In this document: positions 15,987-62,003 of the stretch, piece after piece | How the letters are laid out: each line of letters starts with the position of its first letter | Numbering within the stretch: position 1 is the stretch's first letter | Origin: Lentisphaerota bacterium | Lineage (GTDB): Bacteria > Verrucomicrobiota > Lentisphaeria > Victivallales > UBA1829 | DNA: 62,964 nt | Assembly: GCA_015061565.1 (NCBI GenBank) | Contig: SUWI01000002.1 | Location: 1 to 62,964 of the forward strand | Direction: 5' to 3' | The notes under the pieces: model-generated | What the model was told of the DNA's origin: nothing | Databases searched by the model: none | What the model saw: only the letters and a program-made list of their open reading frames with translations | Position numbers and translations under genes: made by a program

Positions 15987-17081
15987 GTGGCTCATCCGCC
16001 GAAAATCGCGAAACTTTGTCTGGATCTGCAGTGCTATATCCGCATGTATTCCCGTCCGGGAGACAAACTGCCCGCGGAACGGGTGCTGTGCAAGATCATG
16101 GGGGTTTCCTCGCGCACCCTCGGGACTGCCATGCGGAGGCTCGTCGATGAACGGCTGATCATCCGCAACACCAGAGGCAGTTTCGTCTGCGATGCGATCA
16201 GCCGGGCCGGCGAGGACGATCCGTTGACCCTGCTGCTGCCCTGCCCGGATTTCTCGTTCAACAAGGATACCACCAGCGCGCTGTCCAATCAGCAGATGAT
16301 CCGCGGAGCGCTGGCTGCGGCGAAAAAATACCGGCGGCGCGTCATCACCATTCCGGTCACGGACAGCAACAATCCGGATGACATCAACCCGACCCAGCTG
16401 GCGCGGATCGATGCGGGGAGCATGGTCATGTTCCAGAGCCGATGGTATGAGCCGCTGTTCCCGTTTTTCCGTGAACGGCGCTGCCGTCTGGCGTTCCTCA
16501 ACTGCGGCTGGGACACGCCCGAAATGTTCCCGGATAATGACTGTATCCTGGTCACCGAACGCAATTACCAGTCCGCACTGTTCGAACAGGGGATCGCCTG
16601 GCTGTCGGACGCCGGAGCAAGCCGGATCCTTTTCGCAGTCAATGCGGGTCTGCCGGAAGAGGAAACCGACCTGACCAAATTCGAGGATGCGCTGAAAAGG
16701 CACGGTGTGAAAGGAAAACTCATGTTCTGGAGCCGGAACTGGAATTTCCAGCAGTGCACGGAATGGCTGAAACATCTGCATGCAAAAGAAAAATTCGACG
16801 GTCTGCTGCTGTATTCCGACCCGCTGGGATATTACGATCCCGAACTGGATTTTTACGAGATGACCGGTCTTCCGACCGGCCTGCCATTGCTGATCTCGGA
16901 ATCGGGACTGGTCAACCAGCCGCGGATCGGCCGTCATGCCGCCGTGATCCATACGCAATGGAGCCGTTACAGCCGGGAAGCGGCGGAATTTCTGCTTTCC
17001 GGAAGACATGGGAAGGAATTTGTCACCATGGAATATAAAATCGAACCTGCCTCGCAATATCAGGGGATCGGGTTCAAATGA
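15987..17081 (+). CDS. GntR-type HTH regulator with a LacI/PBP1-like sugar-binding domain (cassette A)
   Basis: I preferred the GTG start at 15987 (GAGGAG 7 nt upstream); the ORF-track ATG is at 15963. wHTH: LPAERVLCKIMGVSSRTLGTAMRRLVDERLIIRNTRGSFV. It is paralogous to 31332..32471 and 60945..62003. Confidence 0.8.
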   Translation: MAHPPKIAKLCLDLQCYIRMYSRPGDKLPAERVLCKIMGVSSRTLGTAMRRLVDERLIIRNTRGSFVCDAISRAGEDDPLTLLLPCPDFSFNKDTTSALSNQQMIRGALAAAKKYRRRVITIPVTDSNNPDDINPTQLARIDAGSMVMFQSRWYEPLFPFFRERRCRLAFLNCGWDTPEMFPDNDCILVTERNYQSALFEQGIAWLSDAGASRILFAVNAGLPEEETDLTKFEDALKRHGVKGKLMFWSRNWNFQQCTEWLKHLHAKEKFDGLLLYSDPLGYYDPELDFYEMTGLPTGLPLLISESGLVNQPRIGRHAAVIHTQWSRYSREAAEFLLSGRHGKEFVTMEYKIEPASQYQGIGFK

Positions 17082-17188
17082 CCGGAGTATCTGATGTCAT
17101 GAAGGGAACAGAACATCAAATGGAAGGGTGCAGGATCCGGGGAATGGTGTTTTTGCACAAAACCTCAAAAAAAATGCATGAAATATCA

Positions 17189-17217
17189 TTGCCATTTTTT
17201 TCAAACTGAACTATAAT
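17189..17217 (+). promoter_or_regulatory. Near-consensus sigma70 promoter of the cassette-A pseudopilin operon
   Basis: TTGCCA-N17-TATAAT. Confidence 0.5.
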
Positions 17218-17257
17218 ATACAACAAAATGCTTTCAACAGAAGCAAAGGAGAGAAAC

Positions 17258-17989
17258 ATGAACCAAGTTCAAATCAGACCGTCCGTTCCGAAACGGAATC
17301 CGCAAAAGGGATTTTTTACTTTGATAGAGCTCCTCGTGGTGATCGCGATCATCGCGATCCTGGCGGGACTGCTCCTGCCGGCGCTGAACAAAGCCAAGCA
17401 GGCCGCCCAGCGGATCAGCTGTGTCAACAACCTGAAACAGATGCACGGCATCGTCATGGAATATACGAACATGTATGAGGTTGTCTTGACCGCGACCTAC
17501 AGTTGGTACAACTGGGGACAGCATCTGCTGAACGTCGGTGCCTTCGGCAGTTCTTATAAAGGGACGGAGAACGGATGTCCGAAATTCATGATATGCCCGT
17601 CTTTGGATCCGCAACAACTCGCAAAGCCCAAACTGAGTTCTACAGAGGCTTATTCTTATTCCATCAATACTGCGGTGTCCAAGCTGGCCGGCAGGACTGT
17701 GAACGACGGCATCATGGATTTTTGCAATCCGAAATCTTACACCAAGTATGCCAGTATCAAGCAGCCATCCAAAGTCGGCTGGCTGGGAGATTCTCTCAAA
17801 AGCTGTTACTTCACCTACAATGAAACCCAGTTCGACAATGCGATCGGCTGGCGGCATCGGACTTATGCAAACTTCCTTTATGTCGAAGGGCATGTCGAGC
17901 AGCATAGGTTGAGTGAATTCAAGCCTCTGGTGAACGGGTCCCGCTGGAGGCGTCCGTTCTTCAACTACTTCGATGGAAAATTCCAATAA
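17258..17989 (+). CDS. Prepilin-like N-terminal domain protein, DUF1559 / H-X9-DG family (cassette A)
   Basis: The start at MNQVQ follows AAGGAGAG. It has [45 protein letters not shown] and a C-terminal variant H-X9-(E)G motif, [13 protein letters not shown]. Confidence 0.85.
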
Positions 17990-18002
17990 GAGGAGTTGAA
18001 AA

Positions 18003-59960: not shown

Positions 59961-59990
59961 GATTGACATTTCCTTATTTTAACTCTGAAA

Positions 59991-60770
59991 TCAGGGCGCG
60001 TAGGGGACCCAGAAAACATCGGTGTCGATGCTGGTGTATTTGAACGGTGCTTTCTTGTAGGGATTGATATCGGAATTGTAACTGCGGCGGTCGAAGCCGG
60101 GGAACGCCATGATGGAGCCGGAATGTCCGTCGGCGAACGCCAGATTGACCGCGCCGCCGTGGCGTCCGTCGAAATTGCCGTTGCTGGTGTCGGTGGTGTA
60201 GACGTGGTTCACGTAGGCGTAGCCCCGCTTCGTGCTGGTGGGCATATAAGTATCCGCGATCAGAAACAGTTCGGAGGGGTGTTTGACTTTATCCGGAACA
60301 TATGCCGAGGGCGTGCGGTTCAGGTTCACATTGATGCCGAAATCGCAATATTTATCATAATTTTCCGACGGCGGGGTGGCGATCAGTGTCTCGACCCGTT
60401 CTTTAGTGAAATTCTTGCAGCCGACCGTGTTGTCGGTGAACGACGGGCAGGCCATCACCTTGCCGGTAAGTCCGTAGAGAGACATCATGTAGGTCGCCCA
60501 CGCATAATAATTGTTGTTTGGCGCCTTGTTGAGATGCGCGGGATATTTCTTGTATTCCATTCCGTATTGCACGATGGTCGAGCCGATCTGTTTCATATTG
60601 TTCAGACAGCCGATCCCCTGTGCGGTCTGCTTTGCCTTGTTCAGGGCGGGCAGCAGCATCCCCGCCAGAATGGCGATGATCGCGATGACCACCAGGAGTT
60701 CGATCAAGGTGAAGATCCGCTTTCGACCGGAAGATGAAAGATGTGAGATGAAAGATGAAAACTTGTTCAT
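59991..60770 (-). CDS. Prepilin-like DUF1559 / H-X9-DG family protein (cassette E)
   Basis: 259 aa. Sequence: [50 protein letters not shown]9-DG motif: [13 protein letters not shown]. Confidence 0.85.
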
Positions 60771-60791
60771 GTTCTGTCTCCTTTTTTAAGT

Positions 60792-60901
60792 TGTATTACA
60801 AGATTAGTCCCGTTTATTATCATTTCTGGCTATACTTTATATCTAAAATCCGAAAAAATCAATTGTTTTTTATAAAAATTTCGAATATTTCTTGTAATAC
60901 A
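60792..60901. promoter_or_regulatory. Pair of inverted 11-mers (CTTGTAATACA) in the divergent promoter region of cassette E
   Basis: TGTATTACAAG at 60792-60802 is the reverse complement of CTTGTAATACA at 60891-60901. Each contains the palindrome TGTA-N-TACA. The right copy overlaps the -35 box of the regulator promoter (TTGTAA-N16-TATAAT, 60892-60919). Confidence 0.45.
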
Positions 60902-60944
60902 GCTTTTTTGTGCTATAATACTACTATTGTGGAAGGAGGATGAG

Positions 60945-62003
60945 ATGAGCAAGACGGAAGAAATATTGCAGATATTGCGGAATGAACTCCAGCGGGGAGA
61001 GTATGCCCAGGGGGCTCTTTTTACCTCGGAACCGAAGCTCGTCAAACGTTTTTCGGTATCGCGGATCACCATCAACAAGATTACCGAACAGCTGGTGCGC
61101 GAAGGCTATCTGCAGCGCGGCAGCAAAGGCTCCGGCACGCGGGTGCTCAATACCGCGCCTTTCCCGCTGGGCTCCATCGCCTACCTGGGACCGTATCAGA
61201 ATCCGTATTACGACCTGCTCCAGTTTGAGATCCAGAAAAACGCCATGGAACGCGGTTATGCGGTGAACGCATTCTATCAGGGCAGCTATTCGATCAATCA
61301 ATGTCTGGAAATGATCGCCCGGAACCGGTATCTCGGACTGATCTGCTGCGGCATCGGGATGGTGCCGGAAAATTTCCCGCTGCCGGTCGTGTATGTGGAT
61401 CAGCCGGTCCCCGATGACAGCATCCCGCGATGCTCGGTCTGCATCAACGACTACGAGACCGCATTCGCGGTGATCGATGATATCTGCCGGAAAGGGCATC
61501 GGGAGATCGCGGTTTTATCCAATTACAATTTTATCGAGTACAACCGTCAGCGCCGTCAGCACGGATTTCTGGATTCCATGGTGAAAAACCGGATCCCCAA
61601 TCCCGAAAACCGGATTTTCAATGACCGCGTGACAAGTCTTGTTGAAGCGAAAATGTTCTGGATAAAACTGCTGGCCGCTTATCCGGAAACCACGATCCTG
61701 GTCACAGATTCCAATATGCCGGCCTGGCGGCTTCATGCTGCTGCCATGGAACATAAAAAACCCGACAAAGTGACCATCACCGGATTTGCCAGTTCTCCCA
61801 TGCAGGATGGGCTCTATCATTTTCCGAGCGTGGACCAGCATCCCGACCAGCTCGCATCGTGTGCTGTCTCGGAACTGCTCTACAATGCGGAACATCCGGA
61901 CAACCCGCATTTGTGCGAGACCATCGTTCCCGCCTCGCTGGTCAATTTCGACCGGATTCCTGTCAAACGACCGACCGGACCAAAGTCCCGGCACAGGGAA
62001 TGA
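60945..62003 (+). CDS. GntR-type HTH regulator with a LacI/PBP1-like domain (cassette E, divergent)
   Basis: The ATG at 60945 follows GGAAGGAGGA; the ORF-track TTG is at 60927. wHTH: FTSEPKLVKRFSVSRITINKITEQLVREGYLQRGSKGSGTRV. Confidence 0.85.
   Translation: MSKTEEILQILRNELQRGEYAQGALFTSEPKLVKRFSVSRITINKITEQLVREGYLQRGSKGSGTRVLNTAPFPLGSIAYLGPYQNPYYDLLQFEIQKNAMERGYAVNAFYQGSYSINQCLEMIARNRYLGLICCGIGMVPENFPLPVVYVDQPVPDDSIPRCSVCINDYETAFAVIDDICRKGHREIAVLSNYNFIEYNRQRRQHGFLDSMVKNRIPNPENRIFNDRVTSLVEAKMFWIKLLAAYPETTILVTDSNMPAWRLHAAAMEHKKPDKVTITGFASSPMQDGLYHFPSVDQHPDQLASCAVSELLYNAEHPDNPHLCETIVPASLVNFDRIPVKRPTGPKSRHRE

Follow-up and report, generated by a model that had tools for sequence, protein, structure and literature searches.

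Why would one bacterial contig place a pilin-like gene directly ahead of a very large exported glycan-enzyme-like gene, over and over again? The question is raised by positions 1 to 62,964 (forward strand) of contig SUWI01000002.1 from Lentisphaerota bacterium GCA_015061565.1, of a gut type and probably a member of Victivallales, a stretch of 62,964 nucleotides referred to here as the window, in which a first-pass annotation had described five iterations of a gene order consisting of a regulator, a pseudopilin-like protein of the DUF1559 family and a giant secreted enzyme. Our analysis gives good support to the view that the window holds five copies, with a sixth just outside it, of a pilin-enzyme operon module typical of the lineage. 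The core of this module, likewise well supported, is a pair of genes: the first encodes a 230-280 aa pilin-like protein with a head of the DUF1559/H-X9-DG type, and the one directly behind it a very large glycan-enzyme-like protein exported through Sec. A regulator from a sugar-responsive family, either a GntR helix-turn-helix (HTH) joined to a LacI-like or solute-binding protein (SBP)-like domain, or an AraC-type protein, usually precedes this core, and enzymes without signal peptides often end the module. The pilin gene and the enzyme gene downstream of it are probably co-transcribed.

Five cassettes share a pilin-enzyme core

The open reading frames (ORFs) of the window were listed and then scanned with Pfam and NCBIfam, covering the majority of the large ORFs, though not every one. 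This placed the five cassettes where the first-pass annotation had put them, with the following features.

Cassette A
15924-15952, + strand: promoter-like TTGACA-17-CAAAAT of the regulator
15963..17081, + strand: regulator with GntR-type HTH (372 aa ORF, start at 15987 in the first-pass annotation; Pfam GntR 37.3 bits)
17189..17217, + strand: promoter-like TTGCCA-17-TATAAT ahead of pilin A (11/12 match)
17228..17989, + strand: pilin-like protein A (likely start 17258; leader end ...QKGF|FTLIELL)
18003..21842, + strand: exported CBM9 + LamG3 + GH123_N-like protein, 1279 aa, 13 nt past pilin A (signal peptide KLRSFLAALFAGAVLPA)
21932..23296, + strand: GH39-like protein without signal peptide, with its own promoter-like site at 21859-21887

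Cassette B
32545-32518, - strand: promoter-like TTGACA-16-TAAAAT of the regulator
30492..32510, - strand: regulator-pilin ORF of 672 codons, GntR + Peripla_BP_3 (aa 20-375) in frame with pilin-like protein B
31331-30492, - strand: pilin-like part B (internal ATG at 31331 after AGGAAA; ...VRT|FTLIELL)
27864..30482, - strand: exported DUF4838 protein, 872-aa ORF, 9 nt past pilin B (signal peptide follows an internal Met)
25303..27840, - strand: second DUF4838 + CBM9 protein, a lipoprotein with an LLAGC lipobox
24170..25273, - strand: BNR_2 sialidase-like protein without signal peptide

Cassette C
36715-36743, + strand: promoter-like TTGACA-17-TATATT of the regulator
36715..38238, + strand: regulator with GntR HTH + SBP_bac_1/8-type binding domain (start about 36766)
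38235..38993, + strand: pilin-like protein C (likely start 38295; ...IRT|FTLIELL; H-X9-DG)
39024..42512, + strand: exported LamG3 + MG2 protein, 1162 aa, 30 nt past pilin C

Cassette D
47409-47381, - strand: promoter-like TTGACA-17-TATATT ahead of pilin D (11/12 match)
46514..47326, - strand: pilin-like protein D (...PRH|FTLIELL; H-X9-DG; no regulator adjoining)
43621..46494, - strand: exported LamG3 + GH123_N-like protein, 957-aa ORF (signal peptide from an internal MNNAKLL...)
42523..43608, - strand: DUF4434 protein without signal peptide

Cassette E
60892-60919, + strand: promoter-like TTGTAA-16-TATAAT of the regulator
60927..62003, + strand: regulator with GntR HTH + LacI-type binding domain, divergent from the operon
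59991..60770, - strand: pilin-like protein E (19-residue leader directly before FTLIELL; H-X9-DG)
56070..59969, - strand: exported LamG3 + GH123_N-like protein, 1299 aa, 21 nt past pilin E

Behind each of the five pilin-like genes, in the same orientation, comes a gene for a large signal-peptide protein, 13-30 nt away when the longest ORFs are considered, with 9 nt listed for B. The recurring order proposed at first therefore holds in all five cassettes for the pilin and the exported enzyme; the regulator is absent from D, and a GntR-type regulator adjoins the pilin gene in the other four. On the same contig, just past the right end of the window (L001 1-3194), a sixth cassette has an AraC-type regulator divergent from a gene for a 277-aa N_methyl pilin-like protein (...KHH|FTLIELL), with a DUF4838 protein behind it.

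The pairing exceeds chance and is retained in relatives

Adjacency inside the window was first set against a null in which the order and strand of the genes were shuffled 1,000,000 times. Pilin-enzyme adjacency in all five cassettes arose in a single shuffle (p about 1e-6), and in 193 a regulator was the next gene upstream of at least four of the five pilins. For relatives, 80 loci across the Planctomycetes-Verrucomicrobia-Chlamydiae (PVC) phyla were used, with one genome per species in the scan; locus genes were called by codon-usage log-likelihood and pilin-like genes were defined by motif. Greedy longest-ORF calling was dropped for these loci, as it selected antisense shadow ORFs. The comparison of pilin-like loci set 24 independent Lentisphaerota loci against those of Verrucomicrobiota and Planctomycetota. 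Because loci had been chosen for containing a pilin-like gene, the share of enzymes with such a gene upstream is biased upward, and the fair control is therefore the other genes in the same loci. Relative to this control, the co-directional next gene in Lentisphaerota encoded at least 600 aa after 15/30 pilin-like genes versus 19/183 others (Fisher p=1.7e-6, odds ratio 8.6), and a signal peptide after 16/25 versus 26/122 (Fisher p=5e-5). The adjacency that the first-pass annotation had wanted compared with a null is thus far above it, both in the window and in the 24 Lentisphaerota loci.

The genes after the pilin in Lentisphaerota encode DUF4838 (four times), sulfatase, GH78, GH2, GH20, GH67, GH123 and heparinase II/III proteins. 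On the upstream side, GntR (8), AraC (5) and LacI (2) regulators account for roughly half of 28 cases, and the regulator gene often overlaps the start of the pilin gene, by 4-46 nt. No enrichment of large next genes was seen in Verrucomicrobiota and Planctomycetota (5/45 after the pilin versus 34/420; p=0.57), where the DUF1559 gene usually has a gene for a 120-180 aa protein next to it within ~150 nt, with a lipobox in 10/14 (loci L026, L033, L035, L042, L060, L064, L073, L075, L086 and others). This small exported lipoprotein behind the pilin in the sister phyla suggests a more general theme of a pilin plus an exported partner.

Cassette E has orthologues at L004 (pilin 75%) and at L007-L009 (52%), in which the pilin gene leads into a gene for a ~1292-1296 aa GH123_N protein across a gap of 21-30 nt, and all genes flanking the pilin-enzyme pair differ from those of the window. 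Identities to cassette E at two of these loci are as follows.

L004: regulator 85%, pilin 75%, enzyme 90%
L007: an unrelated protein for the regulator, pilin 52%, enzyme 59%

Overall, the pair is retained at 90, 62, 59 and 47% enzyme identity, the homologues at 62% and 47% each having an FTLIELL protein directly upstream. At 39% the enzyme gene is third after two DUF4838 genes and its upstream region lies outside the available sequence, and at 23% there is no pilin-like gene. Pilin heads are 49-77% identical between orthologues. As the pair survives while its flanks and regulator change, the stable core consists of the pilin and the exported enzyme, and the regulator is exchangeable. The conservation of the pairing, which the first-pass annotation had asked to see checked in related genomes, is therefore borne out. 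Its further proposal that each locus carries its own dedicated DUF1559 partner holds at the level of orthologues only, since beyond them no co-diversification is seen: with orthologues removed, heads and enzyme families do not diversify together (19.5 vs 20.9 bits), and co-duplicated lock-and-key pairs were rejected as a candidate on this result.

A pilin helix carries a fast-evolving head

The five window pilin-like proteins are 252-279 aa long with a prepilin-type N-terminus, and all five share an invariant FTLIELLVV(I/V)AIIAILAG(L/M)LLPALN helix and score over the TIGR02532 cut-off. Each has a hydrophobic stretch of ~21 residues after the expected cleavage site, with Glu at +5. Outside this region they have diverged, pilins B-E being ~30-34% identical overall to pilin A. 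The family assignment made at first stood for part of the set: PF07596 (DUF1559; cut-off 23.3) is passed by C (32.1 bits, with N_methyl) and E (24.1 bits) only, A falls under it (17.4 bits, with an N_methyl match and TIGR02532 at 22 bits vs a 16.3 cut-off), and B and D have no match. TIGR04294 matches D alone, at 16.9 vs a cut-off of 19. C, D and E carry H-X9-DG to the letter, with H-X9-EG in A and H-X9-AG in B. Many close homologues are assigned to PF07596 in precomputed Pfam, the His and Asp of the motif are at least 90% conserved among 78 homologues, and two cysteines, a PS...D motif and H-X9-DG-H are kept across paralogues. Judged from these sequence matches, the names pseudopilin and DUF1559 appear only partly justified for the window proteins. 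The family resembling DUF1559 is very large (at least 7954 members at E<=1e-5, with 8000 candidates scored), and its Lentisphaerota proteins are shorter than those of Verrucomicrobiota and Planctomycetota (median 256 vs 285 aa).

The pilin-like proteins have no equivalog-level match to GspG, GspH or GspI, and their genes lie in catabolic operons and not in a gsp operon; the best GspG score is 35.1 bits vs a cut-off of 88.85, from a match to only ~58 positions at the N-terminal end of the model. When a profile built from 78 homologues was compared with the PDB, the matching sequences were all type IV pilins and GspG, over residues 20-80 only; F20 of the profile falls on the first residue of the mature pilins, and Glu5 is kept. 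An AlphaFold2 model of pilin E (predicted local distance difference test score 91.6) has a helix at 22-73 (52 residues) and an alpha/beta head with several short strands, so that the predicted shape is a lollipop, a long N-terminal helix bearing a head. Foldseek with this model returned nothing from the PDB at E<=0.001, its top match being the helix of PilA only. A solute-binding (periplasmic binding protein) fold of the head, implied by the Pfam name SBP_bac_10, found no support, as Foldseek gave nothing at this threshold and the profile matches the pilin helix only. The head of E taken alone found 128 cluster representatives at E<=1e-3 among 1.84 billion proteins, mostly of 210-300 aa with the head past ~residue 70, and this small number with its uniform layout points to a head that evolves fast within a single architecture.

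The first-pass annotation had also called the coding segments shared among the five cassettes near-identical and offered them as dispersed recombination substrates. Their identity proved to be 73-89% over 84 nt, and the idea is weak to marginal because exact runs of 10-29 nt reach 29 nt at most.

The glycine before the expected cleavage site is missing

Outside archaea, Gly(-1) is described as invariant and absolutely critical for processing by the bacterial prepilin peptidase (PMC4471445). At -1, pilin A has F (with G at -2), B and C have T, D has H and E has I. Glycine occupies this position in 3/34 Lentisphaerota pilin-like proteins, and G or A in 55/58 members from Verrucomicrobiota and Planctomycetota. 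The FTLIE helix, with Phe1, Thr2 and Glu5, is invariant in Lentisphaerota and in these sister phyla alike. Either the pilin-like proteins stay uncleaved, or the peptidase of this lineage follows different rules. A scan of the examined Lentisphaerota loci for motifs found no A24 prepilin peptidase and no canonical GspG.

Upstream of FTLIELL, 45/227 homologues carry a conserved leader in which a thirteen-residue stretch is followed closely by RKR. It is 19 aa long in E (60714-60770, -) and takes a longer form in D (47219-47326, -). The leader-coding DNA of E is built of TTCATCT-like repeats. An RNA element in this region, with the TTCATCT repeats pairing with the Shine-Dalgarno sequence, was considered and dropped, its fold z-score of -0.48 not being significant, and when Rfam was brought to the question only an unrelated flavin mononucleotide (FMN) riboswitch matched.

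The exported partners resemble glycan enzymes

The proteins directly downstream of pilins A-E have 872-1299 aa and contain GH123_N with Laminin_G_3 (three), Laminin_G_3 with MG2 (one) or DUF4838 (one). Sec or lipoprotein signal peptides are present in 6/6 large enzymes, namely these five and the second DUF4838 protein of B, and absent from the later operon enzymes (GH39-like, DUF4434 and BNR_2). For five large proteins (56070-59969, 39024-42512 and 27864-30482 of the window, L004 12063-14942 and L012 13636-16302) the PDB contains no sequence relatives, and some of the five lack any Pfam match. Large exported proteins behind pilin-like genes are thus candidates for uncharacterised families of glycan-active enzymes. 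Homologues of the 1299-aa enzyme of cassette E carry Lentisphaerota-type names only, save one partial protein labelled Verrucomicrobiota.

Regulators precede and in one cassette join the pilin

Regulator B combines GntR with Peripla_BP_3 and regulator E combines GntR with partial LacI-type matches at aa 150-328, while in A only the HTH was detected and in C an SBP_bac_1/8 domain takes the place of the LacI-type one. The set includes chimeric repressors with a GntR HTH and a LacI-type binding domain, as in AraR, and the Joint Genome Institute gives the homologue P0138 the name 'arabinose operon transcriptional repressor'. SBP_bac_1 and SBP_bac_8 domains normally belong to extracellular binding proteins of ATP-binding cassette (ABC) transporters, which makes regulator C an unusual chimera. 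In D, the regulator's place upstream of the pilin is occupied by a Wadjet jetABCD system.

As had been proposed, promoter-like sites lie directly ahead of the pilin genes of A and D, each an 11/12 match with a 17-nt spacer. The accompanying statement that the pilin is the first product of every enzyme operon did not extend to B and C, where the regulator is the first product because the best promoter match precedes it, the order being regulator, pilin, enzyme. An AT-rich inverted repeat (17167-17201) that runs across the -35 hexamer of the pilin A promoter is a candidate operator only; the operator search as a whole returned weak, AT-rich inverted repeats and was not used.

The regulator and pilin of cassette B had been listed as two genes. 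They form a single frame of 672 codons with no stop between them, and other samples contain the fusion too, at 93% identity (P0121, with 9 member sequences). As orthologues of regulator B that share 56-88% identity with it mostly stand alone, with a length of about 370 aa (435 aa in one), the fusion is a recent loss of a stop codon that has persisted. Other fusions join Peripla_BP_3 to DUF1559 (P0141, P0142), LacI and a periplasmic binding domain to a pilin (P0147), and GntR-FCD to DUF1559 (P0149). By analogy, their topology, with the regulator in the cytoplasm, a helix in the membrane and the head in the periplasm, resembles that of a membrane-tethered one-component regulator. The fusion may be tolerated through re-separation of its parts or may hint at a physical link between regulator and pilin, and we treat it as a lead and not as evidence.

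Other genes of the window

The region between cassettes E and D contains a complete Wadjet anti-plasmid system at 47428-54169 (-), next to a gene for a tetratricopeptide repeat protein.

54258-55910, - strand: tetratricopeptide repeat protein
54169-52694, - strand: jetA
52704-52063, - strand: jetB (short, 213 aa)
52112-48606, - strand: jetC
48609-47428, - strand: jetD

Between B and C, 32860-36470 (+) encodes a 646-aa protein in which an ARMT1-like damage-control phosphatase is fused to a zinc alcohol dehydrogenase; next come a DeoR regulator and a TIM-barrel protein resembling xylose isomerase. Together these genes probably form a small cluster for the catabolism of a sugar or sugar phosphate. 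The FMN riboswitch mentioned above (4005-4140, -; Rfam RF00050, 89.6 bits) lies upstream of ribBA (2704-3930, -), which encodes 3,4-dihydroxy-2-butanone 4-phosphate synthase and GTP cyclohydrolase II, an ordinary arrangement.

Discussion

We tentatively propose, with a probability of about 0.4, that the pilin-like protein partners the exported enzyme in the cell envelope, working through a shared type-IV-filament or type II secretion system (T2SS)-like machine for export or display. The protein would insert N-in/C-out through its invariant FTLIE... helix, which would serve as the handle for a shared T2SS-like filament assembly machine encoded elsewhere in the genome. Its fast-evolving head, in the periplasm or at the surface, would partner the co-translated enzyme and couple it to export or surface display, and the cognate sugar would induce enzyme and handler together. 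Such a role would be one of envelope handling and not of SusC-like transport. A precedent is found in T2SS substrates that have dedicated membrane-bound chaperones encoded next to them: according to PMC4713064, Lif/LipB and CpaB (Acinetobacter) are, like the proteins studied here, small N-terminally anchored periplasmic proteins encoded beside the gene of their exoenzyme. Unlike them, these chaperones have ordinary membrane anchors and not a pilin helix with Glu5, and no relation at the sequence level was seen, although no test aimed at one was made. The machinery itself offers a second comparison. GspG-K pseudopilins and type IV pilins also have a hydrophilic leader and an FTLIE helix with Glu5, their alpha1 of ~50 residues with a globular head is predicted here too by the AlphaFold2 model, and T2SS substrates are Sec-exported hydrolases, as are the downstream enzymes here. 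In contrast to these systems, Gly(-1) is absent, the genes are scattered in catabolic operons instead of a gsp or pil cluster, and the head is about twice the size of that of GspG and lacks a PDB match.

Several observations weigh against this proposal. Gly(-1) is present in only ~6% of 220 homologues (G 14, A 17, S 57, the rest mixed) and, by our count, is lacking in 4/5 window pilins, while no T2SS or type IV pilus machinery, prepilin peptidase or secretin was found in the window or in the Lentisphaerota loci examined. About half of the Lentisphaerota pilin-like genes have no large enzyme next to them, and the partners called enzymes have weak domain matches only and no sequence relatives in the PDB. 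Head similarity also fails to follow enzyme family when orthologues are set aside, and at L012 two tandem pilins resemble each other although their enzymes are unrelated; this argues against strict lock-and-key recognition of cargo.

The same lack of correlation between head and enzyme family is what would be expected if specificity tracked the substrate rather than the fold, and the pilin-like protein might then be a glycan-capture subunit whose variable head binds the poly- or oligosaccharide of its operon, on a short type IV filament or anchored in the membrane, holding or reeling in the substrate. Rapid divergence of the head (128 representatives for E; paralogues ~30% identical) fits diversification of ligands, and there are parallels in Sulfolobus, whose proteins for sugar binding have class III signal peptides and depend on an assembly system of the filament type (PMC4471445; PMC3047682), in the minor pilins of Streptococcus sanguinis, which form a glycan-binding complex (PMC9934059), and in the C. 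bescii pilus, which is regulated in response to xylan (bioRxiv 10.1101/614800). We nevertheless regard this role as doubtful. Pfam and NCBIfam detected no carbohydrate-binding module or lectin family in the heads, which lack a structural match in the PDB; the residues kept in all paralogues (the Cys pair, PS...D and H-X9-DG-H) suggest a shared core site and not varied binding sites; the cassettes contain no transporter to take up a captured sugar; and the absent Gly(-1) is as much of a problem for filament assembly here as it is for our own proposal. That absence would be accounted for if the protein were never cleaved and remained a bitopic inner-membrane protein, anchored N-in/C-out, that serves either as a chaperone or tether of the enzyme in the manner of Lif/LipB/CpaB or as a periplasmic sensor signalling to the regulator. 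The difference at -1 between the sister phyla (Gly/Ala in 55/58) and Lentisphaerota (3/34), the long and partly conserved leaders, the frequent overlap of regulator and pilin genes, and the recurrence of regulator-pilin fusions in several architectures, with a topology matching ToxR-like one-component sensors, are all consistent with this. Yet near-invariance of Phe1, Thr2 and the membrane-embedded Glu5 over hundreds of paralogues would be difficult to account for in a simple membrane anchor and is typical of subunits that engage pilus machinery, the B fusion, as a recent loss of a stop codon, is possibly just tolerated, and in orthologues the pilin-enzyme pair outlasts the regulator, and we consider a permanently uncleaved anchor unlikely.

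Finally, there may be no dedicated link at all, the numerous pilin-like genes being generic leaders of exported-protein operons that might provide general T2SS pseudopilus capacity upon induction of any exoenzyme, or reflect a history of duplication. The great size of the family, the other downstream neighbours of about half of its Lentisphaerota genes and the want of co-diversification between pilin and enzyme families would all agree with this. It is nonetheless hard to reconcile with the strong enrichment over the local null, with a pilin orthologue that stays with its enzyme orthologue down to 47-59% identity while the surroundings change, with heads constrained between orthologues, and with a ~70% divergence of heads among paralogues that generic capacity would not need; we judge it quite improbable. 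Envelope handling of the enzyme is the reading that we tentatively favour. A bolder version, which we hold to be possible but on balance unlikely, is that these cassettes represent a new type of locus around which Lentisphaerota may arrange their glycan breakdown, in which a pilin-like subunit specific to substrate or cargo is the defining non-catalytic part, like SusC/D in Bacteroidota, and a route independent of Gly(-1) mounts interchangeable heads on one type-IV-filament machine; conserved leaders of a ten-residue type would belong to this route, and the heads may export, display or feed each induced enzyme.

The suggestion that DUF1559 proteins fill the slot taken by SusC and SusD in the polysaccharide utilization loci (PULs) of Bacteroidota is an analogy only, as the cassettes have no transporter; because nothing indicates transport, the likeness is unsupported as function and useful for the organisation of the locus. 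In both, a regulator, a non-catalytic accessory gene and exported enzymes are co-located, the module is iterated with different enzymes, and the accessory gene could mark the locus. In contrast to Bacteroidota PULs, the accessory here is pilin-like with no sign of transport, and the regulators belong to the GntR, LacI and AraC families instead of being hybrid two-component or extracytoplasmic function (ECF)/anti-sigma systems. In line with the first-pass annotation, no SusC-like TonB-dependent transporter or SusD-like lipoprotein was matched by Pfam among the scanned ORFs of the window. A further parallel is the bindosome (Bas system) of Sulfolobus, in which a pilin-type signal on non-filament proteins is tied to sugar use, many paralogues each sit in their own sugar operon, and non-Gly residues at -1 are tolerated, as they are in archaea (PMC4471445; PMC3047682). 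It differs in being archaeal and in comprising genuine ABC-transporter binding proteins encoded with their transporters, whereas here there is no transporter and no binding-protein fold was detected. The DUF1559 proteins of Planctomycetota and Verrucomicrobiota (PF07596, TIGR04294) share the N-terminal helix, the Cys, PS...D and H-X9-DG-H landmarks and massive paralogy; the Lentisphaerota proteins differ from them in falling mostly near or under the Pfam cut-off, in lacking Gly/Ala(-1) and in having a large glycan enzyme downstream. DUF1559 was said at the outset to have no demonstrated function, and the literature searched still says so: PMC10632474 describes its function as unknown and counts 68 paralogues in P. 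limnophila, of which two are essential. In that literature we found no description linking DUF1559 or pilin-like genes with operons of carbohydrate-active enzymes (CAZymes). The component families are known; what appears to be undescribed is the way they are arranged, the confinement of this arrangement to Lentisphaerota within the sampled PVC phyla, and the non-canonical signal.

The systematic absence of Gly(-1) beside a pilin helix that is perfect in other respects calls the accepted rule of bacterial prepilin processing into question, and the pairing makes DUF1559, among the largest paralogous families of the PVC phyla, testable as a pilin-like handler of an exported partner. In Lentisphaerota of the gut and rumen, the pilin-like gene could serve, as SusC/D pairs do, to find glycan-utilisation operons, and it could flag adjoining large signal-peptide proteins with little family or structure match as candidate new CAZymes. 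If the cassettes do represent a new type of locus, the large DUF1559 family would gain its first function, and the search for new CAZyme families a genomic marker.

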